Positions 7,271-35,295 of a stretch of 40,596 nucleotides of DNA are shown here, piece by piece. A program made the translations under genes and the position numbers. The notes beneath the pieces are model-generated. The model worked only from the letters and a program-made list of their open reading frames with translations, searched no databases and was not told where the DNA came from. This stretch comes from a virus. Taxonomy: Duplodnaviria; Caudoviricetes. Within the stretch, counting starts at the first letter, position 1, and every line of letters starts with the position of its first letter. Where the stretch lies: positions 1 through 40,596 of IMG/VR virus record IMGVR_UViG_3300032216_001207; one strand, written 5' to 3'.

Positions 7271-7788
7271 GCAAGGTTCTTTATCAGATGATCAGTTGAA
7301 TTCAAAAGCGCGGTTATGGACGTCGCGTTGTTAATTAGATGGTCCTCTGTGATGTTTTGCTGCATCCGCTCTGAGGCGTGAGAATCCATGGTTAGCCCGG
7401 GTCGGTAGACGCGCCACAAAACCCCGCCCATAGCGCGAATTGCGGCAGCCTCATTTGGAAAGCGCACGTCATCCACCACCACATTGCCGGTCTGCAGGGC
7501 CACGTCTCGCCGCCACACGTTGACCCAAATGTCAGTATGAATGTTTCGACGGCCCCACTCTGTGCCAAGGGTTTGCAAGAGGTGGCGCGGCGTGACGCCG
7601 CCAAAGACTGAGTTTGGCGTCATTTTGGCTTCGCCGTCTATTTCCTCGTCAGTTAAGCCAAGGCCAAGGCGCAACATCCGCTTGATAGGATCGGCAAAGC
7701 GCATTCGCTCAAATTCATATTCTTCGACAAGGTGTTTGGCGACGAGGGTTTTGCCGCTTCCGGCCAGCCCAAGAATTCCGATAATCAT
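7267..7788 (-). CDS. Deoxynucleoside monophosphate kinase (T4 gp1-like)
   Basis: IIGILGLAGSGKT P-loop; RFADPIK; TPRHLLQTLGTEWGR; DDVRFPNEA; HASE. Confidence 0.92.
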   Translation of the reverse strand: MIIGILGLAGSGKTLVAKHLVEEYEFERMRFADPIKRMLRLGLGLTDEEIDGEAKMTPNSVFGGVTPRHLLQTLGTEWGRRNIHTDIWVNVWRRDVALQTGNVVVDDVRFPNEAAAIRAMGGVLWRVYRPGLTMDSHASERMQQNITEDHLINNATSITALLNSTDHLIKNLA

Positions 7789-7790
7789 AG

Positions 7791-8099
7791 CTAGCTTTCC
7801 TGTTTTGGGTATTTGGCCTTAACCGCATCGCACGCAGCGACATAGGCGTCCCATGGCCCAGTGACGCCTTTTTCTTTCCAATAGAGCGCGTCGGCAAAGT
7901 CAGTTACCGAAGGATATTCAGCAGCCCGTTGCTCTGCATATATAACGAGGTCTTTATATCCACTTTCGGTCCACTGACGGTGACTTGCATTAGGGTCGGC
8001 CTCGTTTTCGGACAAGACCTCCCATTCGTCAAAGTTATAGCCTTCCAGCGATTCAACCACGGCCACGTTGCCGGAAAGGGTGTGCTTGATTAGGTTCAT
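7791..8099 (-). CDS. Tail-fibre-associated/assembly protein
   Basis: C-terminal YAEQRAAEYPSV.D..DALYW...CDAVKAKYPK motif of the kind seen after phage fibre genes; follows the central fibre. Confidence 0.65.
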   Translation of the reverse strand: MNLIKHTLSGNVAVVESLEGYNFDEWEVLSENEADPNASHRQWTESGYKDLVIYAEQRAAEYPSVTDFADALYWKEKGVTGPWDAYVAACDAVKAKYPKQES

Positions 8100-11000
8100 G
8101 CTTGATCCGCCTGTAGGATTCCGCTGAGATAATTCATGGAAGACGTGCCACCTGATTTTCGAGTTAGAAGTTGAAATTCATAAGTCACGTTGCCGGTTAA
8201 ACCGGTTAAGGTAAACGGACCAATGTTCAAATCTCCCATATCCTGAAGAGCATCGACGCTATTGTAAGATGATGGATTGCCGGTAGTGAGCGATCCGCTA
8301 ACGTCCGCCCATGTTCCGCCAGCGACTCGATATTGAAGTTTTCCCTGCAAGGTAAAACTGCCGCCAGCAGCATAATATCCCGCAAAAACATTTAAAATGG
8401 CCTGACCTGAAGCCAAAACTGATAAACTTAGCGTTGGACCGTAAGACTGAAACGATGCTGAACTGTTTGTATTTGCTTCCGTAAGGGTTACGGTTGAAGT
8501 CGTTTTAGGTGGTGAATCATAAGTTTTTGATAGCGTTGCTTTTTGGAACACAGTTTGTCCGGCATAGGTTGCTTGAACCGTAATGGTCGCTGTGTCACCG
8601 CTCATAGCGCTTATCGTAACCACACCACCTGAATAGGTGGCTGTGCATCCAGCCAAAGTTAGGCTCACCGAAGTTGGTGTTACCGCTCCTCCGCCTTGAG
8701 CCACTGTGACCGCAAGGTAAGCTGGAAGCTGACCAGATTTAGGGTCACCTAGGTAGTTGCAAAGCACGGTTCGAGCAGATGGCGAGAGAGAAATTGTAAC
8801 AGGGCTCACCCCGTCGTTTCCGGTGACACCTTGCTTGGCAACCGAAACCGAAAAGATTTTGGTTACAATTTCCGACTGTGCGGTAGCGCCGACCAAAATG
8901 GCATAGCCACCAGCAGCCCCGACCGCCGTCACAGAGTAGTTGCCTGCCGTAGCCCCCGGGCCCGCAACCATTGTGCTTGTGACGTTGGAATCGCCCCCGC
9001 GCGCAAAGGTGCAGATCGACGTAATATCGGTGGTGCCCCTAAACATTTTTAGGGTGCCGGTTGCCGGAGAATAGTCAGAAACGACGCCAGAAGAATTGCC
9101 GCTTAGGGTCACGGCCTCGTTGGTCAGATAGCCGGTGACGGTCGAAGAGCCATCAACAAGACGGACCACAGTCACGGTGTCGCTTAGGCTTCCGTTGGTA
9201 GCTGTGATCACGGCATAGGACGCCGTGCTAAATTGCGCCACAGTCAAGGTGCGCGTGTTGCCCGATCCGCCCAAGGTCACAGCCCCGAGAGAACTACCCG
9301 CAGAATTGTAGAGCGTGCAGGCAAAAGTTGCCGTGCCCGAAATGTTCTGTTGGTTAGCCGTTAGCGTAATCGTTTGCGAAGTTGGCTTGGCGGCGTTGGT
9401 GCCATCGAACGTGAAGGACTGGCCAGTGCAAGACAGGAACAGAAGCTGCGCAGCCGCGCCATCGGTTCCGTCTTGCGCCAAAACCGAAGCTGCAGCCCAT
9501 TCACCAGCCGCAATGGTGTCGGTCGTGCCCGAGGACAAGGCCGTTGCTGTTGTCACCCACCGGTAAGAGCCACCCGTGGCCGGTAGGCTTTGGGCCCAAC
9601 CGTTTGTAATTCCAGACGCAGATGCTGTTGCAAAAGTATAAGTGATTGTGGCGCTTGGCAGGGTCGGCGCGGCGTTGGTCGTGGTTCGTTGGAACAGATA
9701 AACCGTCGCTGTGTTGACGCCGTTTGTGCCCGGGCTTCCATCTGTTCCATTTTGAACAAATATAACAGGAGTCGCCCACTCGGCAGCCGCAATGGTGTCG
9801 GTTGCGCCAGAGGAACTGGCGCTTGCGGCAATCACATAAAGCGGCAGCGTTCCAGACGGAATAGTGGCAGACCAACCATTGTTAAAGCCGGTGGCCACGC
9901 TTGTTGCAAAGGTAAAGGTCACCGTTGTCGATGGAGCAGACGGAGCGCTTGCGGAGCGTTGGTAGAGGTAAACCACCGCATTGTTTAAACCGGCAGAGCC
10001 GGGCGCTCCATCGGTGCCGTCTTGAGCAAGAAGCGCGGCAGCCGCCCATTCCCCCGCAGCTATCGTGTCTGTTGTCCCGGTTGACAGAGCGGTGGCAGTG
10101 GTTACCCACCGATAGGCCCCACCCGTGGTCGGCAAGGTTTGCGTCCAACCATTGTTGACGCCTGTAGCCGCGCCAGTTGCAAAGGTATAGGTCGCAGTGG
10201 CGCTTGGAAGCGTTGGGGCGACGTTGGTCGTGGTCCTTTGAAACAGGTAAACGGTGGCCGTATTGGTTCCGTTTGTGCCCGAGCTTCCATCGGCTCCATT
10301 TTGAACAAAGATAACCGGAGAGGCCCATTCAGCGGGTGCAATTGTATCGGTTGCGCCGGTAGAACTAGCGCTTGCTGCAGTGACGTACAGCGGCGATGTT
10401 CCGCCGGGTATGGTTGTTGACCAGCCGTTGTTATAGCCCGTCAGCGTGCTTGTGGCAAAAGTGTAGGTAGAAGTTGTCGAGGGATTGGCGGGCGCAGAAG
10501 CAGCGCGCTGATACAGATAGACCACCGCGTTGTTTAAGCCCGCAGAACCCGCCGCACCATCCGCTCCGTCTTGCGCCAACAAGGCAGATGTTGCCCATTC
10601 GCCGGTAGCAATGCTGTCTGTAGCCGACGTGGACAAGGCGGTTGCCGTGGTGACCCAGCGATAAGCCCCGCCGGTCGTGGGTAGGCTTTGGGCCCAGCCG
10701 TTGGTTAGCCCAGTCGCCGCACCAGTGGCGAACGTGTAAGTGACCGTGGCACTTGGCACAGACGGAGGCGTTGCGGTTGTGGTGCGCTGGAAGAGGTAAA
10801 CCGTAGCGGTGTTAAATCCATTGGTCCCGTTGCTCCCATTGGTCCCGTTTTGGACAAAGACCACTGGCGTTGCCCATTCGCCCGCGCCAATGGTGTCAGT
10901 CGTGCCGCCGGATTGCGCCGTGGCAGCCGAAACGTAAAGCGGATCGGTGCCGCCCGGAATGGCTGTTGTCCAACCATTGTTGAGGCCGGTCAGGGTGGAG

Positions 11001-23195: not shown

Positions 23196-24182
23196 TTAAG
23201 CGACGATAGAACCCCAGAAGGAACCCAGATCGGCGGACACGAGCTTCATGTCAAAGCACATATCAATTTCGATCCGGTCCGAACCAAGCTCTTCCATGCG
23301 GAAGGACTTAATGCGGTTGCCATCAGAGCCAGAACCCAGCAGGCCCGTCCAAGAGAACGTATAGCCAGCGGTTGGGGTCATAAGGCCCGGAGCAGGGGTC
23401 GAGAAGGTCAGCAGAGCCTGCTTACCGCCAATGAAGGAGTGAGAGTTGGTCTGACCTTCAACGCCAGTGTTTTCCACCGCGTTCATGACCAAAACCTCGT
23501 CCACGCCCAACAGGCGAGCGAGCGTGTCGGTGTTGGCTTGCGCAGGAGCCCCGGAGGTCTGGCCGTACTTGATACGGTCAATAATCTCGGGGTGGTCTAG
23601 CAAGGCGTCAAACACTGCGCGGCCAAGGACGAGCTTGTTGGGCTCGTAACCCGTGGACTCCGCAATCTGACGCTTGGACAGACGCACGTTCTCGATTGGG
23701 GTCGAGGTGGCGTCGTTCCACTGTTTCACCTGATTGGTGCTCGGAGTGCCGGAAACGCCGGTGTTCTCGAAGGTCCACACGCCGGTCTTGAAGAACGAGG
23801 CAACAAACGACTTCTCGCGACGGATCAGCGCCTTGTGCGTGACAAAGGCGGTGGCTTCACGATCAGGGTTCAGGACCGCGTCGGCGTTGGCGCGCAATTC
23901 GTCAGGGATATCCTTGTGGAAGGAGAACCGGTTGGCGAAATAGGTCGGGGTGTTATCCAAGCGATAACCACCGCCAGCCGAAGGCGTGCCGGGCGCGCGA
24001 ATTACCATTTCATCGCGGTTGAAGTCGCCGCGATCATAGACGTAGTAGCGGTCGCTCTGCTTCATGACGGGGATGTTTGGGAACACCTTGGTTGCCACGA
24101 AGTTGTTGGCGTTCTGCAAAAACGCAATCGAAATATTCGAAAGCGGGGTATTTACATGAACGTCGCCGGGGGTCGGGTTCAT
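23196..24182 (-). CDS. Major capsid protein (HK97 fold, lambda gpE-like)
   Basis: 328 aa; DVHVNTPLSNISIAF...VFPNIPV.KQSDRY...PNKLVLG..VFDALLDHP; follows decoration and scaffold genes. Confidence 0.92.
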   Translation of the reverse strand: MNPTPGDVHVNTPLSNISIAFLQNANNFVATKVFPNIPVMKQSDRYYVYDRGDFNRDEMVIRAPGTPSAGGGYRLDNTPTYFANRFSFHKDIPDELRANADAVLNPDREATAFVTHKALIRREKSFVASFFKTGVWTFENTGVSGTPSTNQVKQWNDATSTPIENVRLSKRQIAESTGYEPNKLVLGRAVFDALLDHPEIIDRIKYGQTSGAPAQANTDTLARLLGVDEVLVMNAVENTGVEGQTNSHSFIGGKQALLTFSTPAPGLMTPTAGYTFSWTGLLGSGSDGNRIKSFRMEELGSDRIEIDMCFDMKLVSADLGSFWGSIVA

Positions 24183-24673: not shown

Positions 24674-25573
24674 TTACGCGGCCCGACGCTTGGTGATGTA
24701 AGCGTTGTAGAGCTTTGGATTTTCATCCACTGCCTTCGCATACGCCATTTGATACGTCATGCCGCTGTTGGCCTTTTGAATTTCTTCGGCCTTGGCTTTC
24801 AGGACTTCTTCGGGGTCACCTTCGGAAGCACTATCGCTACCGACCGACTTAAAGAGTGCAGCCGTGGCCGAGACTTCGCCCGCCGACTTCAACATGGTTT
24901 CCAGCTCAACCGCGTCGGCTGGAGTGGTCGCACCCTTACGGACGCGCATAAGGAGCGGGCCGACCACTTCAGGATCACCGACCTTGAGGTCGCGAGCCTT
25001 GGCAATGGCTTCCTTGGTTTCGGCCTCGTCGCGCATCTTGGCGATTTCAGCCATGGCCGACTTGGCCACTGCGTCGGATTCCTCAAGGCGCTTGCGCACT
25101 GACTCGGGAAGCGACTTCATAATCTCGTCTTCGGCGACAGGAGCGTCACCCTTTAGAGCGGCAATTTCGGCGTCTTTGGCCTTAATCACTTCTTGAGCTT
25201 CGGTCAGGGCGGTTTCAGCCGTTCCGACTTGGGCCTCAAGGGCATTCAATTTGGTTTCGGCGTCCTCAAGGGACTTCGAGATTGATTCCATATCCATTTC
25301 AAACTCCTGCATTGCAGCCGAAGCGGCGTCGTCTGCTTCCGAGTCCACCGAGTGCCCCCCGGTGAGGGTCTGCGCCAAGCGTGGCGCGATTTGAGCGAGG
25401 GCTTTCTTGACACGGTGGCTTACTGAATCCACCTCGCCCGGTTCGACTTGATCATCGGGCGATGAAGTAACCCCGGCCTTCGCTTTCACGATCTGGACGC
25501 GGGATTGTTCGTTTGCGGGATCGTCAACCAGACTGATCTCGTCTATTTCCATATCCGACAGAGCTTGTGCCAT
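24674..25573 (-). CDS. Capsid scaffolding protein with an N-terminal protease-type EISLVD.PAN segment
   Basis: RBS GGAGG then ATG 25573; acidic coiled coil; C-terminal AYAKAVDENPKLYNAY. Confidence 0.8.
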   Translation of the reverse strand: MAQALSDMEIDEISLVDDPANEQSRVQIVKAKAGVTSSPDDQVEPGEVDSVSHRVKKALAQIAPRLAQTLTGGHSVDSEADDAASAAMQEFEMDMESISKSLEDAETKLNALEAQVGTAETALTEAQEVIKAKDAEIAALKGDAPVAEDEIMKSLPESVRKRLEESDAVAKSAMAEIAKMRDEAETKEAIAKARDLKVGDPEVVGPLLMRVRKGATTPADAVELETMLKSAGEVSATAALFKSVGSDSASEGDPEEVLKAKAEEIQKANSGMTYQMAYAKAVDENPKLYNAYITKRRAA

Positions 25574-25574
25574 T

Positions 25575-25970
25575 TCAAGCCTCCATTTTCGTTCGACGGC
25601 CACGGCCACCAATAGAAAAGGCGCGCAACGTGCCCTTTCGAACCTTCTTTTGGATTTCAGGGTCGCTGATTTCCATGCCGATCCACCAGCCACGCTTTGA
25701 ATCGGTTAGGCCAAGGGCCTTGGCAAAGGCGTCGTCAATGATGACTGATTCGACCACTTCCCCGACCTTTGAGCCGGAGTGCATGGCTTTGGCCACGCGG
25801 GCGTCGCAGATGAAGCGGTGAGCGGCCTTTCGAATTTCGTCAATGCTGATTACGTCGCCTTGATGGTCCTCGACCACTTGGCCAGCATCGCTGACCACAG
25901 ACGCCCACCCGCGCACGAACCGACCGGTCGTGTCAGCTTTTTCGAACTCAAAGGAGATTCCGAACTGCAT
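25575..25970 (-). CDS. XkdF-type prohead serine protease
   Basis: VRGWASV...DHQGDVI...KAAHRF...MH...GEVVES...GWWIG...VRKGTLRAFSIGG. Confidence 0.88.
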   Translation of the reverse strand: MQFGISFEFEKADTTGRFVRGWASVVSDAGQVVEDHQGDVISIDEIRKAAHRFICDARVAKAMHSGSKVGEVVESVIIDDAFAKALGLTDSKRGWWIGMEISDPEIQKKVRKGTLRAFSIGGRGRRTKMEA

Positions 25971-26665: not shown

Positions 26666-29600
26666 TCATGGCTTGTGCGGCAAAGCCAGAACCTCGACGA
26701 TGGTTTTGTTGAACCATTTCGAGCCATCTGTTGCGACGTACTGTTTATGGTGCGTTACCTTCAAGACAGCATATCGAACGCCATTTTGAATGATAATTTC
26801 CCGTTCATGTGAACCATGTTCAGAAAAAGTGGTTGCCTCCACGCCTCTGACGCCCTCTTCGGCAACATGAATTTTTAGCCATGTTCCATGACTAGCAAAA
26901 GCGGGAGTAGCCCCAAAGCTAGCGGAATTGAATGAACCGTCTTGAATGACGCCGCCAGTGACGGATTCGTAGGTCGATTGACCAACACCGATTCCACGCC
27001 ACAAAATGCTTCCCGCTGGAACATCCAAGGAAGCCTTTTTAAATGCCGCGACCATGGGCTTCGATGCTTCAAAATATGGACTATCTACATCGCCCTTTCG
27101 AAGGGCCGTGTTCCAATCATCGTAAAAACTGCCGGTGTATTGCTTGGCTTTTGTTTGTTCCTTTTCCGACATTGCCGCAAAGGCAGCTTTGCTTTTGGCG
27201 CTGTAATCCTGCAGCACCTTGTCTGCCATGGTGATTTCCTTAAAATCACCCTTTTTGGGAATTGGAATCGACGAGGCCGCGTCTTTGCTCAAAACGACAT
27301 AATCGGCAGCCCTTTGAGCATTTTTGAAAGCCTCGTATGGAATTGCAGGGTGACTTTTGGAAAGTGACGCAGATAGCTTTCCATAGGCACCCGTGAACGT
27401 CCCACTTTGAACGGTTTTGTAGCCGGTCTCTGTTTGCGCTTGAAGCTCGGCTAAAACTTGGCCGTGATATTCCTTAACCGCTGAAGCCGGGTGGTCAGCG
27501 ATGCCAATGGTCTTGGTGCCATATGTCCCGGTGGCCTTATCAAAAACCGGAAACTGAATGTTTTTGATGGCGTCAACATGCGATTGTCCATCCAGCAAAT
27601 TATGGCTTGTCGCTATTGCATGGATAAGGTTGACCGCATCATTGTTGGCTTTGTTGATGGCCTCTGATGATGATTTCCATTTGTTCGTTGGTCCTTGATT
27701 TCCGTTTTTGAAAAAGTCTGGCTGTAACGGAATATCCTCGGGCTTAAAGCCTTTGGCGGGCGTCTGAATGTGCGCATATTTGACGCCAAACTCCTCGCCC
27801 TGTTCGAGAATTTTTTCACCGGGCTGTAGTTGGAGCCAGTCTTTTTTCTTACTGGCTTTGACGGACTCTTTGACGGCCTTTGCAGCTTTGTCCGGCGCTG
27901 TTGAAGCGACAGGCAATGGGGTCTTGACCAGAGCAGCCGCAGCAGTTGCGGTCTGTAGCGTAGCGCCGCCGTACAACGCCGGATGATTGTTTTCTAGTTG
28001 CCCCTTGACCACAACGTGCGGCGACCCCAGCGCGGCCAAGGCAGCATTAGCGAGTTTGACCTGTTGCTTGCCGTAAGTGTTGGTGCCGTAAGGCAAAGCC
28101 AAAAGACCTTTCACGTCTCCAGCCATAGCAAGATTGGAAAGCAGATCGACCTTTGGATTGTGAGACTTGGCGTTTTGATTCGTTGCCGCGAGCTTTGTGG
28201 CCTCAAAGTTAGGCATAGCTCCACCCGCCGGGGGTGTCATCGTGTTTGGCGCAGGGACAGGAGCCGGTTTTGACACCACTGCGTCTGCGACCTTGGCCGT
28301 AGCAACGGTTGTTGCGGCAGCCTTCATATTGAGGTCGGCTACAAGCGCGTTGTAATAGTTGGCAATCTTGATTCCGTTTGTTGTCCCGGGTTTCCATGGC
28401 AAACCGTTGACATATTTTCCACCGGTCGCGCCCTCTTTAAGCGCGGCCATATCGCCTTTCGCGTGGGCAGCTTCAAACTTCTTGACCATGGCGTCATAGA
28501 ATTTGTCTGAAGACAAGCCCGTGTTGAACACAGGCTTGTTCGGTATATCGACCTTTGGCGCGGCAGCCGAAATGGCCTTGGCTTCAACCTCGACGGCCTT
28601 TTGGTCAACCGTGCTTTTGATCCTTTCAGGCTTTAACCCAAGTGCTGCGGACGCAGGAATGCCACCTTCTTTTTCAGGATTCAAATATGCGTTTGCCTTG
28701 GCAACAATCGCTTGCTTTCGTTCAATCAGGTTTTCGGCCAGCTTGGTTTTAAAAGCTGCGTCCCCCGGACCATAGGTGTTTACTAGCTTACGAATCGTGT
28801 CGTCGCTGATGTTCTCCAGCCTTTGGGCCGAAGTCCTTAATTGGTAATTAGTCATAGAACCAAAGACGGAAACTTGTTCGGAAGTGTTTTTCCGCATGGT
28901 TTCAAATTCGGGGGCCTTTGGGTCTAGGACTCCACCGTGTGCAGCAAGGTCTTTGGGCAGCCCCTGCGCGCGGAACAATAGCGCACCACCGGGGTCGATG
29001 TTGATTGCCTTGCCGTCTTTTATGACTGTGTTGTCGTAACCCATCCCCAAGACGTCATAGTTTGCAAGCCAAGCATGAACGGCAAAGTCCTTCTTAATGA
29101 TGGCTTTTTCAATATCGTTTGGCCCGCCAAGCAACGAGGTGGCACCCTCGACCATTTTGGACGCAACACCAAGGCCACCGCCAAATTTGCCTTCAAGCTC
29201 GACAAGCTTCATATCTGGCGCGCCGACCCCAGCGGCCAGCATTAGGTGAGACGCGAGAACCTCATTCTTGGCCCGGTCGTCGTTCTGTTGCGGGGTAACC
29301 ACACCGGCTTTGGCGTTACCCTTGACCAACCACTTATCGCCGTTCTCTTGATACATTGCGCCCGGGTTCGACCCGCCGGGTTTTGCACCCACGGCAAGGC
29401 CAAAGCTGGACAAGGTTTTTGGGCCTGCAATGGCGTCAACAGACGCGGTTGCCTTAATCTTAGCCTCATGGTCGGCTACGGCCTGTGTTGCCCATTGGTG
29501 AACTTGTGCGCCCCACTTGATATGGGATGAGCCCTTAATACCAGCGGTGAACTGCGCGGCCTTGTCGGCAAATTTGGCAATGGCAGCCTTTACCGGCCCA

Positions 29601-30733
29601 ACATCTCCCGTGCTGGACAGAGCGGACGCGGCAGCGTTCATGGTTTTTTGATAGATGGGATTGGAGCCCGTCAAGCCACCGGCCACGGTCGGAGCAAGAG
29701 TTATCCCGTCAGCGCCCGTAGCCTTCCACTGACCACCAAGAGCCGATCCACCGGGCCATCGCGCCTGATGCGCCCAGCTTCCGCCACTGCCGCCCTTGGA
29801 GCCGCCGCCGCCGCCCTTGGCCTTGCCAAAGCTCATGAGGTGTTCAAGCTCATCTAGCATGGCCCGGTCGTGCGTGCGGTTTAACAGCTTGCGCGCATCC
29901 TTGAGAGTTGCGAGCGTCATGGCCTGCGACTCCCAGCCCATATCTTTTGGCGTCCCGCCGACGCGGCGCGCGATATAGAACCGAGCCTTGGAGGTATCGC
30001 GCTCAAAATCACCCAAAATGCCGGTGATCTGGACCTTGAGGCCCGTTTCCTCGTGGGCCTCCTTGATAGCGTTCTGTTGCAACGTAAGGCCCGACTCTGC
30101 GGTGCCTTTTGGATATGTGTTCTGATAGCCGCCAAAGGCGTTAGTGGGCCGCGTGAGCCACAAGCGGCCATCCGGCTCGACGATTATGACGCCAGCGCCG
30201 GTGTTTTTGGTCGGGTGCGGCACAAACGGGGTGTCTAGGTCGAGCGATGGCTTGGTTCCCTTCACTGCAGACCAGCCTTCGGCAGGCGGATTCCACGCCT
30301 TCATTGCCACGCCGTTTAAGGTCGCGGGCGCGTCGCCCCCGGGCGTGAAGACTGCGGACTTGGTGCGGTCGGTCCATGTGCTCGGGTGGCTGGCCTTGGA
30401 CGGGTAATCAATCGAGACCGGCTTGCCTTGGTCGTTGGTCTGCGGGTGCGGCTTGGCCCCTGCAGGCGGAGCAGATGGCTTGGCCCACATGCCACTGCCC
30501 TTCCACCCTGATTCATAAAAAGTGTTTTCACCCGGTAGCGTCTTCGGTTGAAAGCCGCCGCCGCCGCCACCCGCACCTGTGCCTTTGGGCGCAAACTGGC
30601 CACCCTTGGTGTTGCCTGCAGGGTAGCGGGTGTAATTGCCCGCACCGCTTTTGCCTGCGCCGGACTTCTGCAGCGCGAGCTTGAGGCGGATCAGGGCGAA
30701 TTGGGCCTTGATGGCCTCAAGGCTACTTGCCAT
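26666..30733 (-). CDS. Polyvalent protein: Nudix hydrolase + PI3/4K/HipA-like kinase + R-S-E ADP-ribosyltransferase
   Basis: Nudix box PKGTAESGLTLQQNAIKEAHEETGL; kinase GSNPG..Y...WLVK...NEVLASHL...HAWLANYDVLG..DN...IDPGGALLFRAQG; ART YTGSFYDDWNTALRKG...LWRG...FNSAS...HEREIII. Confidence 0.88.
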   Translation of the reverse strand: MASSLEAIKAQFALIRLKLALQKSGAGKSGAGNYTRYPAGNTKGGQFAPKGTGAGGGGGGFQPKTLPGENTFYESGWKGSGMWAKPSAPPAGAKPHPQTNDQGKPVSIDYPSKASHPSTWTDRTKSAVFTPGGDAPATLNGVAMKAWNPPAEGWSAVKGTKPSLDLDTPFVPHPTKNTGAGVIIVEPDGRLWLTRPTNAFGGYQNTYPKGTAESGLTLQQNAIKEAHEETGLKVQITGILGDFERDTSKARFYIARRVGGTPKDMGWESQAMTLATLKDARKLLNRTHDRAMLDELEHLMSFGKAKGGGGGSKGGSGGSWAHQARWPGGSALGGQWKATGADGITLAPTVAGGLTGSNPIYQKTMNAAASALSSTGDVGPVKAAIAKFADKAAQFTAGIKGSSHIKWGAQVHQWATQAVADHEAKIKATASVDAIAGPKTLSSFGLAVGAKPGGSNPGAMYQENGDKWLVKGNAKAGVVTPQQNDDRAKNEVLASHLMLAAGVGAPDMKLVELEGKFGGGLGVASKMVEGATSLLGGPNDIEKAIIKKDFAVHAWLANYDVLGMGYDNTVIKDGKAINIDPGGALLFRAQGLPKDLAAHGGVLDPKAPEFETMRKNTSEQVSVFGSMTNYQLRTSAQRLENISDDTIRKLVNTYGPGDAAFKTKLAENLIERKQAIVAKANAYLNPEKEGGIPASAALGLKPERIKSTVDQKAVEVEAKAISAAAPKVDIPNKPVFNTGLSSDKFYDAMVKKFEAAHAKGDMAALKEGATGGKYVNGLPWKPGTTNGIKIANYYNALVADLNMKAAATTVATAKVADAVVSKPAPVPAPNTMTPPAGGAMPNFEATKLAATNQNAKSHNPKVDLLSNLAMAGDVKGLLALPYGTNTYGKQQVKLANAALAALGSPHVVVKGQLENNHPALYGGATLQTATAAAALVKTPLPVASTAPDKAAKAVKESVKASKKKDWLQLQPGEKILEQGEEFGVKYAHIQTPAKGFKPEDIPLQPDFFKNGNQGPTNKWKSSSEAINKANNDAVNLIHAIATSHNLLDGQSHVDAIKNIQFPVFDKATGTYGTKTIGIADHPASAVKEYHGQVLAELQAQTETGYKTVQSGTFTGAYGKLSASLSKSHPAIPYEAFKNAQRAADYVVLSKDAASSIPIPKKGDFKEITMADKVLQDYSAKSKAAFAAMSEKEQTKAKQYTGSFYDDWNTALRKGDVDSPYFEASKPMVAAFKKASLDVPAGSILWRGIGVGQSTYESVTGGVIQDGSFNSASFGATPAFASHGTWLKIHVAEEGVRGVEATTFSEHGSHEREIIIQNGVRYAVLKVTHHKQYVATDGSKWFNKTIVEVLALPHKP

Positions 30734-30947
30734 CGGTGGCGACCTTCTTCTTTGGCTTCTTTGCGGGAACGGTGCCCAAAGGAACGGGGACGTGAACGTC
30801 GCTCACGTCAGGACCGGCAGCCTCGCCACCATCCTTTAAAATCATGGCGTGCTTGGCCACAATTCCGCAGCGGTTCATAAACATTTCGGCGCGGTCCTTG
30901 ATGGACTCAAGGCGGGCGGCGGCGTTGGCGTACTGATCAGGCAACAT
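30723..30947 (-). CDS. Small hypothetical head-associated protein
   Basis: RBS GAAGGA then ATG 30947; basic C-tail; stop overlaps the effector start. Confidence 0.65.
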   Translation of the reverse strand: MLPDQYANAAARLESIKDRAEMFMNRCGIVAKHAMILKDGGEAAGPDVSDVHVPVPLGTVPAKKPKKKVATDGK

Positions 30948-32315: not shown

Positions 32316-32591
32316 ATGAACATCATCGAACGCATCGAAGCCCGCGTTGCCGAAAACAAGGCCAGCGTGAAGACCTACAAGACCTATGACCGCGCCGACG
32401 CCACGGCAGCCAAGCTCGCCAAGGAATTTGAGGAAGGTCACGACAGCGAAATCTCGATCCGCTATTCCGTGGTTAGGCTCCCCAACGCTGACCGCTGGAC
32501 GGTGATTTTTAAACTGACCGAGTGGATCAACCGGGCCAATCAAGGCACCTATCTTGGCTACTTTTCCCAGCAGGGTTTCTTCACAATTTAA
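32316..32591 (+). CDS. Hypothetical early protein
   Basis: RBS TAAGGA; 91 aa; followed by a hairpin. Confidence 0.8.
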   Translation: MNIIERIEARVAENKASVKTYKTYDRADATAAKLAKEFEEGHDSEISIRYSVVRLPNADRWTVIFKLTEWINRANQGTYLGYFSQQGFFTI

Positions 32592-32599
32592 TCTCAAGC

Positions 32600-32625
32600 G
32601 GGGGCTTCGGCCTCCACCCCATTTC
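32600..32625 (+). terminator. Hairpin/terminator
   Basis: GGGGGC-TTCG-GCCTCC with UUCG loop; weak U-tract. Confidence 0.55.
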
Positions 32626-32640
32626 ATGCAAGGACGCGCC

Positions 32641-32760
32641 ATGACCTACACCCCACGCCCCCCACGGTTTCCCATCATCCCGGCCTTGGCCTTCTTTGCG
32701 GTCGCAGGGCTTGCCGGATATTTCGTGCTGACCTTCATTAGGTTTGCGTTTTCCATCTGA
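32641..32760 (+). CDS. 39-aa single-TM peptide
   Basis: RBS AAGGA then ATG 32641; IIPALAFFAVAGLAGYFVLTFI. Confidence 0.6.
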   Translation: MTYTPRPPRFPIIPALAFFAVAGLAGYFVLTFIRFAFSI

Positions 32761-32767
32761 CCCCCAC

Positions 32768-32795
32768 TTGACGGTTGTCATAGCCGTGATACTGA
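32768..32795 (+). promoter_or_regulatory. Putative early promoter with operator in the spacer
   Basis: TTGACG-N16-TACTGA; operator TTGTCAT-AGCC-GTGATAC at 32775-32792. Confidence 0.65.
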
Positions 32796-32833
32796 ACAGG
32801 AGCGGGCGCAGGGCCCGCGAGAAAGGACACCCC

Positions 32834-33103
32834 ATGAACGTCGAACGTCGTAAACAATTGAATCTCGCCATTGGCCTCCTTGAGCAAATGGAGGCGCTGC
32901 GCGATGTGGCACTGGAGATTATTTCCACCGCAAGGGATGAAGAGCAGGAAGCCTTCGACAACATGCCCGAGGGCCTGCAGGGCGCAGAGCGCGGCCAGAA
33001 CATGGAGACGGCCATCTCTGAAATGGAAACCGCTATCTCCGCACTGGAGGAAATCTATTTTGACGACCTCAAGGCCAACGTCGAAGAGGCAAAGGGGGAA
33101 TAG
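32834..33103 (+). CDS. Conserved acidic helical phage protein
   Basis: RBS AAAGGA; MN..RRK...DEEQEAFDNMPEGLQ..ERG..ME.AI pattern. Confidence 0.82.
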   Translation: MNVERRKQLNLAIGLLEQMEALRDVALEIISTARDEEQEAFDNMPEGLQGAERGQNMETAISEMETAISALEEIYFDDLKANVEEAKGE

Positions 33104-33292
33104 ATGCTCTACCTATCTATAAGGCAACGCTTACCGCTCGGGGCCGTTTTCCTGACCGACAATGCGGCCTACGAGACCCCTGAAGCGGCCCGTGCGGCCA
33201 GTCCTTACAAGCCGATAGGTGTGGAGCCCACACAGCCTCCCGCCTTTGTTGGCGAAGCCGCGAAGCATTGTTACAAGGTGGTGAAGCTATGA
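33104..33292 (+). CDS. Hypothetical protein
   Basis: Abuts the upstream stop; ATGA overlap with the next gene. Confidence 0.6.
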   Translation: MLYLSIRQRLPLGAVFLTDNAAYETPEAARAASPYKPIGVEPTQPPAFVGEAAKHCYKVVKL

Positions 33293-33705
33293 TCGACGAC
33301 CAGATGATATGGCGAATTGCCCAAGCCCCATTTGATGACAAAACGGGCCTTTATACGCTTCGGCTAGAGGGTCACCCATGCAACGGTTACACCTCGCCCG
33401 ATATGATCTATTGGACGGCACCCGACCTCGACACGACTTGGGACAACGTGGTTCAGTTGGAGTTTCCGCGTAAGGCGGTCGGCCAAGGCTTTGAGCAAGA
33501 CCTTTTAACCGGCGAAATAAAGCCAGTCTCCCAATCAGAGGGACAAGCGGAGGAAGCACCACCCATGACCTTTAAAGACCGCTTTCAGGAGGCCGCAGCG
33601 CTTCTGATAACTATAGCTTTTGGCACAGCAGCCGCCCTTGGCTTGATTGCCATAGCCGTCATCTCACTCGACAGCATTGTCCGGCATGTGGTGGCGTGGA
33701 TATGA
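33289..33705 (+). CDS. Hypothetical protein with C-terminal TM
   Basis: ATGA-coupled start; hydrophobic ALLITIAFGTAAALGLIAIAVI. Confidence 0.65.
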   Translation: MIDDQMIWRIAQAPFDDKTGLYTLRLEGHPCNGYTSPDMIYWTAPDLDTTWDNVVQLEFPRKAVGQGFEQDLLTGEIKPVSQSEGQAEEAPPMTFKDRFQEAAALLITIAFGTAAALGLIAIAVISLDSIVRHVVAWI

Positions 33706-34178
33706 CCGCAATTACGACGGAATATCAGTTTTATATGATCACATATGAGGAAAGTCGGAATCAGTGGGTTTGCCATGAGTTGGGCTTTCATCACTTCCGT
33801 CTCTCGTCGGTCAAGCAAATGATCGACCAGCACAAACAGCAACAGTTGCACACCCCTTTAAAGGTTCGCTATCTTAGCGATGTGATAAAGGATGCTGACG
33901 GCATGTTTGCCTTTGTCACTGCCATAACTCCTGATGCGCCATCAAAACACAGGGTGTTGGCCTTTATAGACTCGATTGCCGGTCAAAGGATGCACGCCTT
34001 TGATGACTTCGCGTTCGACACGCCTGAGAACAGCGCCCTCATTGACGAGTGGCTGTTTCTGCGCGCGCAGGCCGACGAGGCCATCTTTCGGACAAGAAAG
34101 GCCAAGCAAGCAATTCCACGCTGCACGTCAATGGAGCTTCTTGGCTTAGGCGTGCCTGTTGTGAAGTTGGTGGAATGA
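33702..34178 (+). CDS. Hypothetical protein
   Basis: ATGA-coupled at both ends. Confidence 0.65.
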   Translation: MTAITTEYQFYMITYEESRNQWVCHELGFHHFRLSSVKQMIDQHKQQQLHTPLKVRYLSDVIKDADGMFAFVTAITPDAPSKHRVLAFIDSIAGQRMHAFDDFAFDTPENSALIDEWLFLRAQADEAIFRTRKAKQAIPRCTSMELLGLGVPVVKLVE

Positions 34179-34360
34179 GCCAATACCGCTGCGACCTATT
34201 CGACCTTGAAGCCAAGGTCGTCCGCGAAACCCCTACGGCTTACAAGCTGGCGTATGGTGGTCCCGAGGACATTTGGCTTTCCAAGGCATGGGTCGAAAAC
34301 AATCACGATGGAACATTCACTATGCCACGATGGCTTGCCGTGGAGAGGGGGTTATTATGA
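34175..34360 (+). CDS. Small conserved phage protein
   Basis: RETP.AY.L......IWLSK........TFTMPRWLA.ERGL pattern; ATGA-coupled. Confidence 0.75.
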   Translation: MSQYRCDLFDLEAKVVRETPTAYKLAYGGPEDIWLSKAWVENNHDGTFTMPRWLAVERGLL

Positions 34361-34518
34361 TCGAATTTCAAACGGTCGAGCAGATGCAGGCGCGCATAGC
34401 AGACCTTGAGGCCATCATTGTCGAGCGCGGCGATATCATCGCGGCACAGGCGGCGCAAATTGAAACGCTTAGATCGGGGATAACCACAGATTATTATTAC
34501 GATGAGGAACTAAAATGA
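34357..34518 (+). CDS. Small coiled-coil hypothetical protein
   Basis: RBS GAGGGG; ATGA-coupled. Confidence 0.6.
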   Translation: MIEFQTVEQMQARIADLEAIIVERGDIIAAQAAQIETLRSGITTDYYYDEELK

Positions 34519-34730
34519 CCGAGACAGAATTGCACGCCCTCCAACAGGAGGTCATGGACGCCCACGCTTGGATTACAATCCTGTTACGGGAACACTTTTT
34601 AGCTCAATGCGAACTGGACCGGGCCGACGAGCGCCTAACCGTTGCTCGCATGAGATTTAGTGACCTTCGCTTGCGCTATGTTTCGGCCAAGCTGCGTTTT
34701 GATACCAAGAAAGACGAAGAAGATGACTGA
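34515..34730 (+). CDS. Small coiled-coil hypothetical protein
   Basis: RBS GAGGA; heptad pattern. Confidence 0.6.
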   Translation: MTETELHALQQEVMDAHAWITILLREHFLAQCELDRADERLTVARMRFSDLRLRYVSAKLRFDTKKDEEDD

Positions 34731-35295
34731 TTGGAATTTCGAGGGCATGAAGCCCAACCACTACGGGGCCCTGATTACCGATCCGCCTTGGCGCTTTGCC
34801 CACCGGTCGGCCAAAGGTGAACTGAAGAACGCCGTCCAGCACTACGATTGCATGAGCCTTCAAGCTCTGCGCACGCTACCGGTCGCTGATCTTGCGGCCA
34901 AGGACTGCGCGTTGATTATGTGGGCCACTGCGCCCTTATTGCCCGAGGCGGTCGAATTGATGCGGTCTTGGGGGTTTGATTACAAGTCGGCGGGAACGTG
35001 GGCAAAGCAATCCAGCACCGGGAACAAGTGGGCCTTTGGGACCGGATATTGCTTCCGGTCGGCCAGTGAGTTTTTCCTGCTAGGCACTCGGGGAAAGCCC
35101 AAGGTGCGCTCGCGGTCCATTCGCAACCTGATTGTTGCGCCTGTCCGCGAGCACTCCAGAAAGCCTGACGCTATGCACAATAACGTCGAGGCCCTCTACG
35201 AGGGGCCCTATGGCGAACTGTTCGCGCGCGAGGGCCGACCCGGTTGGGATACTTGGGGAAACGAGACCGAAAAGTTTACCGCTTTGCGCGCTTAA
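34723..35295 (+). CDS. MT-A70-family N6-adenine methyltransferase
   Basis: TDPPW catalytic motif; HYDCMS; LIMWAT; WGF.YK; GTGY.FR..SE..LLGTRG; REHSRKPD; ELFAR..RPGWD.WGNE. Confidence 0.93.
   Translation: MTDWNFEGMKPNHYGALITDPPWRFAHRSAKGELKNAVQHYDCMSLQALRTLPVADLAAKDCALIMWATAPLLPEAVELMRSWGFDYKSAGTWAKQSSTGNKWAFGTGYCFRSASEFFLLGTRGKPKVRSRSIRNLIVAPVREHSRKPDAMHNNVEALYEGPYGELFAREGRPGWDTWGNETEKFTALRA

Follow-up and report, generated by a model that had tools for sequence, protein, structure and literature searches.

Passages on MuF polymorphic toxins describe a toxin–immunity cassette pattern (Jamet 2017, PMC5576092), and in passages on the MuF-linked ADP-ribosyltransferase (ART) Bxa, the toxin is blocked by a binding immunity protein, Bsi, with Bsi and BAH as the immunity proteins (PMC11699363). 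Phage polyvalent proteins are defined, in the passages of Iyer 2017 that concern them, by disparate enzyme domains in one chain and a virion-gene context; in the same passages, Alt/VIP2 ARTs are absent from genuine polyvalent proteins, whose own ARTs are of the H-Y-D type (PMC5512222). In phage T4, Alt and the IP proteins have, according to passages in PMC7411985, a capsid-targeting propeptide that is removed by the head protease gp21. Here, we analyse a polyprotein of 1355 amino acids (aa) with Nudix, kinase, and ART domains, together with the small acidic protein encoded directly downstream (181 aa, hereafter the partner), in the head module of an uncultured virus (Caudoviricetes; IMG/VR record IMGVR_UViG_3300032216_001207). 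The whole stretch analysed, 40,596 nucleotides (nt) or 40.6 kb, is called the window; it is a virus record that is ~70% complete, with tape measure, tail tube, and head genes present.

The reading that we prefer, with modest confidence, is that the head protease cuts a tagged cargo protein into two pieces, and that a new family of partner proteins guards an ART that can be swapped. The Nudix–kinase–ART chain would be loaded into the phage prohead, where the adjacent head protease would cut after Lys23 and Lys304 and leave a tagged Nudix piece and a tagged kinase–ART piece. Both would be injected with the DNA and modify host proteins, and the downstream acidic protein would bind and silence the ART in the producing cell.

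A single protein search (7,995 proteins scored) gives a family set of 114 proteins, the query included, with the kinase in 114/114, the Nudix in 96/114, and the ART in 109/114. An earlier note, made from the sequence of the window alone, had placed the 1355-aa open reading frame (ORF) between MuF and the prohead protease and had recognized in it a Nudix, a kinase, and an R-S-E ART. The reading frame, its position, and the three domain calls all stand: the domain coordinates are correct within a few codons, the catalytic residues are kept across the 114 proteins, and the AlphaFold models of kinase and ART match kinase and ART folds in Foldseek. The Nudix domain matches PF00293 at aa 177-286 (E 8.4e-10, 39 bits vs. 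a cut-off of 21), with the box glutamates E225, E228, and E229 each in 96/96 proteins. The box is a variant, with L216 (89/96) and K224 (95/96) at the positions where the canonical Nudix box has E and R.

The ART matches PF03496 (ADPrib_exo_Tox) at aa 1185-1334 (E 4.5e-6, above the cut-off) and the Alt-like PHROG 802 (E 1e-4). In the AlphaFold model of aa 725-1355 (predicted local distance difference test, pLDDT, 91.5; predicted template modelling score, pTM, 0.51), it matches C3stau2 (Z 15.6, root-mean-square deviation, rmsd, 2.9, 175 residues aligned), VIP2 (Z 15.1), and CDTa (Z ~15). Among the 109 ART-bearing proteins, the catalytic glutamates E1312 (109/109) and E1310 (108/109) are nearly invariant, R1246 is replaced by K in 8 (R in 101), and at position S1270, 66 proteins have S, 34 have C, and 9 have P. 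The E-x-E motif is associated with arginine-directed transfer, and arginine mono-ADP-ribosylation of host proteins, as by T4 Alt, is the default prediction from that motif. In a fold search with the same 631-aa model, which barely tests the linker domains, these match only generic helical bundles (Z 5-7); the middle one recurs at the N-terminus of the homologues in isolated phages. Relatives of the polyprotein additionally carry ART-PolyVal, zeta toxin, WGR, Acb1, or ChaB domains.

The kinase has no match in Pfam or PHROG. Its AlphaFold model (aa 315-700, 59 sequences, pLDDT 94.4) is closest in fold to CtkA (Foldseek E 4.5e-6, Z 15.7, rmsd 3.4, 208 aligned), then to PI4KII-alpha, MavQ, and CotH (Z ~13) and HipA (Z 11.2). 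The catalytic residues are K471 (113/114) and E491, D560, N568, and D580 (each 114/114). The closest fold matches take in both protein and lipid kinases, and CtkA is a protein kinase; by default we read the domain as a HipA/CtkA-like protein kinase, with protein phosphorylation as its predicted activity. It adds an unannotated family of phage kinases. A third cut site considered at the kinase end (K679: K in 74/114, R in 18) was rejected, since it falls within a predicted helix and no tag follows. The same kinase occurs in giant proteins of 1,000-5,800 aa (L059-L081), most of them without a Pfam match and with neither ART nor partner detected, and in a 1,905-aa Paraburkholderia protein (P0045) where five Nudix domains of the subfamily treated here follow it. 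Among shorter proteins, 12 relatives of the kinase were retrieved, many of them from short contigs.

Two copies of a short tag mark the beginnings of the Nudix and kinase–ART parts. The 12-residue tag, RxPxGxxxGGQ[F/W], has 159 strict matches in 91/114 proteins, and the motif [FILVM]-x-K-[A/S] lies at most 25 aa upstream of 52/80 first tags and 52/79 second tags (8% in random windows, 14% and 7% in shuffles of the same windows). The same motif is found in the N-terminal segments of the XkdF protease (21/23 distinct), MuF (18/25), and the scaffold (17/22), with K11 of the protease in 23/24 and the scaffold Lys column in 23/23. It is rare in the capsid protein (3/21), the 142-aa head protein (1/21), the head–tail adaptor (0/21), and a 139-aa gene (3/16). 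The polyprotein thus has, in common with head proteins of the same phage, a leader that ends in this motif. The looser [FILVM]-x-K, without A/S, was rejected as unspecific (it is in 20/21 capsid N-termini). The protease of HK97 belongs to a family related to the XkdF type. According to passages in PMC10275583, the HK97 head protease cuts at K103/S104. We read the leader Lys as the candidate cut site, and the tag as a putative signal that is retained for loading or ejection.

Natural fissions and fusions occur at the same joints. In L019, a stop, a ribosome-binding site, and a new start fall exactly at or just before tag 2; in P0124, the upstream small protein is joined via a Lys joint; Acb1 insertions in relatives lie between the Nudix and tag 2; and in L014, the tag stands on a gene of its own (538 aa). 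In phages that have been isolated, the parts are apart as well. With tblastn, the kinase is found in 20 of 50,697 phage records, eight of them from proteobacterial phages, in which this Nudix subfamily is present too. In the five that were examined (fHe-Yen8-01 gp129-131; Dolphis gp117-119; ECML-606-1 genes 47-45; ST4 gp109-107; Mecenats66 ORF50-52), kinase–ART, partner, and Nudix are three genes (5/5), and Lys leaders stand on the first and third of them (K/A or K/S before the kinase–ART in 5/5; K/A before the Nudix in four and K/G in one). The hosts are E. coli, Pseudomonas, Aeromonas, Morganella, and Yersinia, and their records annotate no more than the ART or the Nudix, leaving kinase and partner without a name. 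Because of the internal Lys motif followed by tag 2, the split in L019, and the three-gene isolates, Nudix and kinase–ART are regarded as separate units, and the chain of the window is probably cut into these two parts.

The tags themselves vary. A tag-profile search of longer proteins gives 105 matches among 7,996 scored, mostly in the same family, a number that does not gauge the full range of the tag. In unrelated head proteins (P0145, P0150, P0155, P0156, L051), repeated W/F-D-E-x-K-H-P-R versions follow other motifs (e.g., A-A-G), which suggests one tag family used with different proteases. In the Nudix genes of isolates (L082-L083, L122-L124), the Lys leader is followed by a different tag with the pattern H/Q-V/I-x-G-Y-x-R-x-D-G-x-x-V; judged by these patterns, tags look exchangeable between head types.

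A link to the virion is seen in gene fusions: L047, L055, and P0104 each encode MuF, kinase, and ART as one protein, and in L094, the kinase is joined to a portal. In GenBank notes by the depositors, gp129, gp130, and gp131 of the Yersinia phage fHe-Yen8-01 are particle-associated. The encapsidation proposed in the earlier note is, with these fusions and labels and the head-module context, likely as far as packaging goes; injection is a prediction. For the terms searched, passages of the Mecenats66 paper do not touch on these proteins. Among the matches listed in literature searches, there is no account of the triad, the partner, the tag, or fHe-Yen8-01 proteomics; the supplementary architecture lists of Iyer 2017 and 2022 may contain these proteins. 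In Gordonia phage Mareelih (gp76-79, L109), a portal, the kinase-bearing gp77, a small gp78, and an ART (gp79) follow one another, with kinase and ART as separate neighbours.

The ART is exchanged on a conserved Nudix–kinase backbone. Across 20 loci, dereplicated by kinase, the pairwise identities of four proteins or domains (Nudix, kinase, protease, and capsid) rise and fall together (rho 0.66-0.89), whereas those of the ART correlate with none of them (-0.03 to 0.06; 0.02-0.06 for kinase, protease, and capsid). Six ART clades occur among the 82 proteins with all three domains, and on the Nudix+kinase tree of these proteins they require 36 changes (minimum 5; shuffled mean 43, shuffled lowest 36). 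The proteins P0058 and P0062 are 99% identical in Nudix+kinase and 22% in the ART. The loci L004 and L009 align at 97% up to the kinase end and again from 5 nt past the partner stop; in between, only one 620-nt stretch aligns (81%), and the partners share 40/158 residues. The MuF proteins of the two loci are identical (380/380). Such repeated swapping points to an active arms race over the host target of the ART. In the same two loci (L004 6296-17982, L009 1545-13362), the right breakpoint of the ART cassette is the partner stop codon, and a related contig (run X4) also diverges at window 26108; this codon is possibly a fixed recombination point. In two further runs, contigs of related phages leave the partner gene uncovered and reach little or nothing of the ART region, which does not count as a finding.

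The partner goes with the ART. Among 65 of 81 kinase ORFs, those with a complete 3′ end (not dereplicated, and with one frameshifted locus counted twice), it is present in 31/41 ART-bearing vs. 0/24 ART-less loci, and in 28/28 loci with an XkdF head. With capsid and protease controlled, partner similarity has a partial r of 0.37 with the ART (Mantel p 0.0005) and of 0.36 with linker domain 2 (p 0.0025), above the values for kinase (0.16) and Nudix (0.09). ART and partner are exchanged together; the pattern is that of the toxin–immunity cassettes of MuF toxins, and the partner is likely an immunity protein. Its family comprises 1,105 clusters at 50% identity and proteins of 156-188 aa; they are acidic (median net charge -15), with ART domains that are neutral to basic, and they have no Lys leader ([FILVM]-x-K-[A/S] in 0/17 N-termini and in 13/141 family members). 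One recognizable partner family goes with all ART clades. Searches of Pfam, PHROGs, NCBIfam, PADLOC, and PDB sequences give no match for the partner (best E 0.54), and the ESM Atlas offers none that is usable; tblastn of the window partner against the 50,697 phage records finds nothing, but the family profile does find the isolate homologues.

Several points weigh against the preferred reading. The strict Lys motif is absent before about one third of the tags, and a Lys preference of the XkdF enzyme would be carried over from HK97. Because the fHe-Yen8-01 record labels the large terminase as particle-associated too, and no paper with data was found behind these labels, they count as moderate support. 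The partner tracks linker domain 2 as well as the ART and so may bind there; neighbouring genes co-transfer by linkage alone, and the co-variation pairs are phylogenetically non-independent; the presence counts over the 65 kinase ORFs are not dereplicated. In 10 ART-bearing loci and in four bacterial kinase–ART loci, no partner is detectable. The particle-associated label on the partner homologue of fHe-Yen8-01 is unexpected for an excluded immunity protein, and three partner–Nudix fusions do not fit simple immunity.

Instead of inhibiting the ART, the downstream protein could act as a chaperone in packaging or folding, or could be injected along with the polyprotein as a partner of its linker domains or its Nudix. 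Such a role would suit the fHe-Yen8-01 label, the tracking of linker domain 2, the single family for all ART clades, and the Nudix fusions (3 of the 150 family members listed; in one, the Nudix belongs to the subfamily treated here). We consider it unlikely, since the partner is never seen with a kinase ORF that lacks the ART (0/24), its exchange with the ART reaches its own stop codon, and it combines a strong acidity, opposite a neutral-to-basic ART, with the lack of a Lys leader.

The earlier note had seen in the polyprotein a single uncut chain, injected as such, in which ART and kinase would serve host takeover and the Nudix would hydrolyse ADP-ribose or nicotinamide adenine dinucleotide (NAD) to counter NAD-based defences. 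In most of the 96 proteins with a Nudix, a single ORF does encode all three domains, passages in PMC9503650 propose that head-associated phage Nudix enzymes counter ADP-ribose signals, and, according to passages in PMC5512222, some polyvalent proteins are delivered unprocessed. The hydrolase assignment is nevertheless unsupported, because the nearest relative of the Nudix among solved structures (PDB sequences) is an Ap4A hydrolase (E 1.9e-5); against NCBIfam, no family cut-off is reached. Some Joint Genome Institute (JGI) labels on relatives read YjhB ADP-ribose pyrophosphatase, and the ESM Atlas gives generic Nudix clusters only. No evidence was found that this protein counters NAD-based defences, and no defence-related link for its Nudix, though Acb1 (anti-CBASS) is Pfam-listed in 4/114 proteins (P0053, P0056, P0069, P0070), inserted between the Nudix and tag 2. 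Nor does one chain appear to hold a self-contained trio: the Nudix module carries its own tag and follows a candidate protease site, it has its own gene in L019 and in all five isolates, and a fourth component, the partner, accompanies the ART. With the internal Lys motif, the second tag, and these split layouts against it, the uncut chain is rather improbable. Within the cut cargo that we prefer, the Nudix, as judged from sequence, most likely acts on an exposed nucleotide diphosphate (a dinucleoside polyphosphate, capped RNA, or protein-bound ADP-ribose) and would not be a classical ADP-ribose pyrophosphatase.

A scan of bacterial genomes gives 25 loci with relatives of the kinase. Kinase–ART proteins of 598-639 aa (L087-L090; L087:7668-9464) occur in Collimonas, Massilia, and a Burkholderiaceae genome, with no partner gene detected; two of them (L087 and L088) stand beside type III secretion genes (XopP-family and HrpD5 matches). 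In L095-L107 (13/13), an intact kinase is paired with an R-P phosphatase. In samples of 401 and 400 genomes, 4 and 8 are positive, and the four new close matches all have the phosphatase, with no draG within 1.5 kb; among the six best plasmid matches to the phosphatase, four overlap genes annotated as ADP-ribosylglycohydrolase-family. In Rhodobacter/Fuscovulum (L096, L097, L098, L100, L101, L105, L106; ~7300-10400), the kinase is fused or adjacent to the R-P phosphatase and converges on draT-draG, where it may add a level to the control of nitrogenase by ADP-ribosylation. As the link to draT-draG is confined to these seven related genomes, it was rejected as a general one.

These loci bear on a refinement of the preferred reading, to which we give little credence: the ART would add ADP-ribose to host proteins, and the kinase would phosphorylate the adduct and/or the Nudix trim it to phosphoribose, so that host ADP-ribosylglycohydrolases could not reverse it. 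Kinase and Nudix stay constant while ART clades are swapped, as fits enzymes that act on a common product; if the kinase acted on an ADP-ribose adduct, its indifference to ART swapping and the bacterial phosphatase links would be explained. Kinase–ART fusions recur in unrelated head types and in the bacterial proteins L087-L090, and the phosphatase pairing, its overlap with glycohydrolase annotations, and the seven draT-draG loci point the same way. In passages of Iyer 2022, a phosphatase is present in >55% of the host glycohydrolase systems predicted to act against ARTs (PMC9503650), and, in passages of PMC4680915, single-domain Nudix enzymes such as RppH trim protein-bound ADP-ribose. The lipid kinases PI4KII-alpha and MavQ are among the close fold matches. 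On the other side, 24/65 complete kinase ORFs have no detected ART, the draT-draG link is limited as said above, an ordinary protein kinase is equally expected to pair with a phosphatase, and the top fold match, CtkA, is a protein kinase. We know of no ADP-ribose kinase of this fold. If true, phosphorylation of ADP-ribose by the kinase would be a new protein modification and would explain why bacterial anti-ART glycohydrolases come with phosphatases; there would then be a new PI4K/CtkA-fold kinase class, a system guarded by an immunity family of 1,100 clusters, and portable protease-cut tags for loading capsids.

That the genes form a late intracellular toxin–antidote module (e.g., for lysis timing or the exclusion of competing phages) that is merely in the late operon, as the position of the isolates' three genes outside the core head operon might indicate, is very unlikely in view of the leaders common to protease, scaffold, and MuF, the MuF and portal fusions, and the particle-associated annotations.

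In the window, the gene order is MuF, 74-aa gene, polyprotein, 181-aa gene, XkdF-type protease, scaffold, 142-aa head protein, and major capsid protein (Table 1), and the same head gene order is found again in closer viral loci. The earlier note had the neighbourhood right but left out the 74-aa and 181-aa genes in between; its description of the polyprotein as MuF-linked is correct as adjacency and not as fusion, MuF being a separate ORF.

Table 1. Features of the polyprotein gene and its neighbours in the window (a slash after Lys marks a candidate cut).
Feature	Position	Strand	Remarks
Major capsid protein	23196..24182	-	context
Scaffold-like protein	24674..25573	-	assigned by position between protease and capsid genes; conserved I-V-K/A site
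XkdF-type prohead protease	25575..25970	-	PF14550, E 5.7e-16; own F-E-K11/A leader; H64 and S119 in 20/20
Acidic partner gene, 181 aa	26108..26653	-	12 nt past ART stop; GGAG ribosome-binding site at stop; candidate immunity protein
Cargo polyprotein, 1355 aa	26666..30733	-	leader-K, tag 1, Nudix, K, tag 2, helical domain, kinase, three linker domains, ART
R-S-E (E-x-E) ADP-ribosyltransferase, VIP2/Alt/C3 fold	26675..27250	-	one of six exchangeable clades
Three folded linker domains, aa 735-821, 843-936, 970-1160	27254..28531	-	
CtkA/PI4K/HipA-fold atypical kinase, aa 440-682	28688..29416	-	K471, E491, D560, N568, D580
Helical domain preceding kinase, aa 358-436	29426..29662	-	
Tag 2, aa 325-336, RWPxGxxxGGQW	29726..29761	-	
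Internal F-G-K304/A site preceding Gly linker	29819..29830	-	candidate cut between Nudix and kinase–ART modules
Nudix hydrolase, aa 177-298	29840..30205	-	box 30038-30106 with E225/E228/E229
Trp/Pro-rich conserved extension, aa 96-172	30218..30448	-	marker of this Nudix subfamily; 94/114 proteins vs. 96 with Nudix
Tag 1, aa 36-47, RxPxGxxxGGQF	30593..30628	-	candidate capsid-targeting peptide
Leader, aa 1-23, ends L-Q-K23/S	30665..30733	-	candidate prohead-protease site
Small 74-aa gene	30723..30947	-	leader ends I-L-K, then D-V-H-V-P motif resembling major capsid protein N-terminus
MuF minor head protein, 398 aa	31011..32207	-	PF04233, E 9.5e-11; V-F-K/A leader site; without toxin extension

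The D-V-H-V-P motif of the small gene, usually soon after the Lys site, copies the N-terminus of the major capsid protein (also in L002:2293-2997, L004:8514-9077, L019:8771-9943, and P0124) and may be a second capsid-binding tag, to judge from this likeness. In relatives, the gene encodes 183-234 aa with a PHROG 2859 domain, which the window copy has lost. Directly upstream of MuF, the usual portal position in many phages, there is an opposite-strand block (32316-35295, +) that includes an MT-A70 methyltransferase. Among the window ORFs scanned, we found no portal, terminase, or integrase, in a record that is partial.

What was annotated as a "Nudix domain protein" becomes a defined four-part system of Nudix, kinase, swappable ART, and partner. 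It is common to uncultured siphovirus-like phages and cultured isolates, and carriers in E. coli and Pseudomonas make it directly testable. The system adds a large candidate family of ART immunity proteins and suggests the 12-residue tag with its Lys site as a portable capsid-loading signal.

The general theme of virion-packaged phage effectors is already known, and the four-part system is a variation on it. The same kinase, ART, partner, and Nudix families form the isolate triads, with three genes and a different tag there and two genes here. With CtkA, PI4KII, MavQ, CotH, and HipA, the kinase shares the fold (Z 11-16) and the catalytic Lys, Glu, Asp, Asn, and Asp, but identity is only 11-15% and no family hidden Markov model (HMM) matches. 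As in polyvalent proteins, in the passages of PMC5512222 and PMC9503650 that describe them, unrelated enzyme domains are in one chain beside head genes, and the polyprotein falls under the broad definition. In contrast to those accounts, where the ART is the H-Y-D ART-PolyVal, the kinase is without its C-terminal subdomain, and processing is mainly by built-in metallopeptidases, the ART here is of the R-S-E type, the kinase has a full helical C-lobe, and processing is ascribed to the head protease; ART-PolyVal does occur in one relative (P0047).

With T4 Alt and the internal proteins, as presented in passages of PMC7411985, the polyprotein has in common the R-S-E ART, a leader at the N-terminus that the prohead protease is predicted to remove, and predicted injection; it differs in the Lys-directed site, the second, internal site, the conserved tag past the cut, the ART-linked partner gene, and the added kinase and Nudix. 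With MuF toxins and Bxa, in the passages cited at the outset, it has in common the location in the head module, a variable C-terminal ART, and a small downstream gene that travels with the toxin domain, and the relatives L047, L055, and P0104 are MuF–kinase–ART fusions. With MuF unfused, it falls outside the MuF toxins in the strict sense; the peptide tag seems to take the place of the fusion. The variation here is among ART clades only, and the ART comes with kinase and Nudix domains that are conserved. The partner is longer (156-188 aa) than the downstream ORFs of MuF toxins, given as <150 aa in passages of PMC5576092, and, without a match in family or structure databases, it is set beside Bsi by role only. 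By analogy, the predicted delivery resembles that of T4 Alt, and the variation and putative immunity resemble those of a MuF polymorphic toxin.

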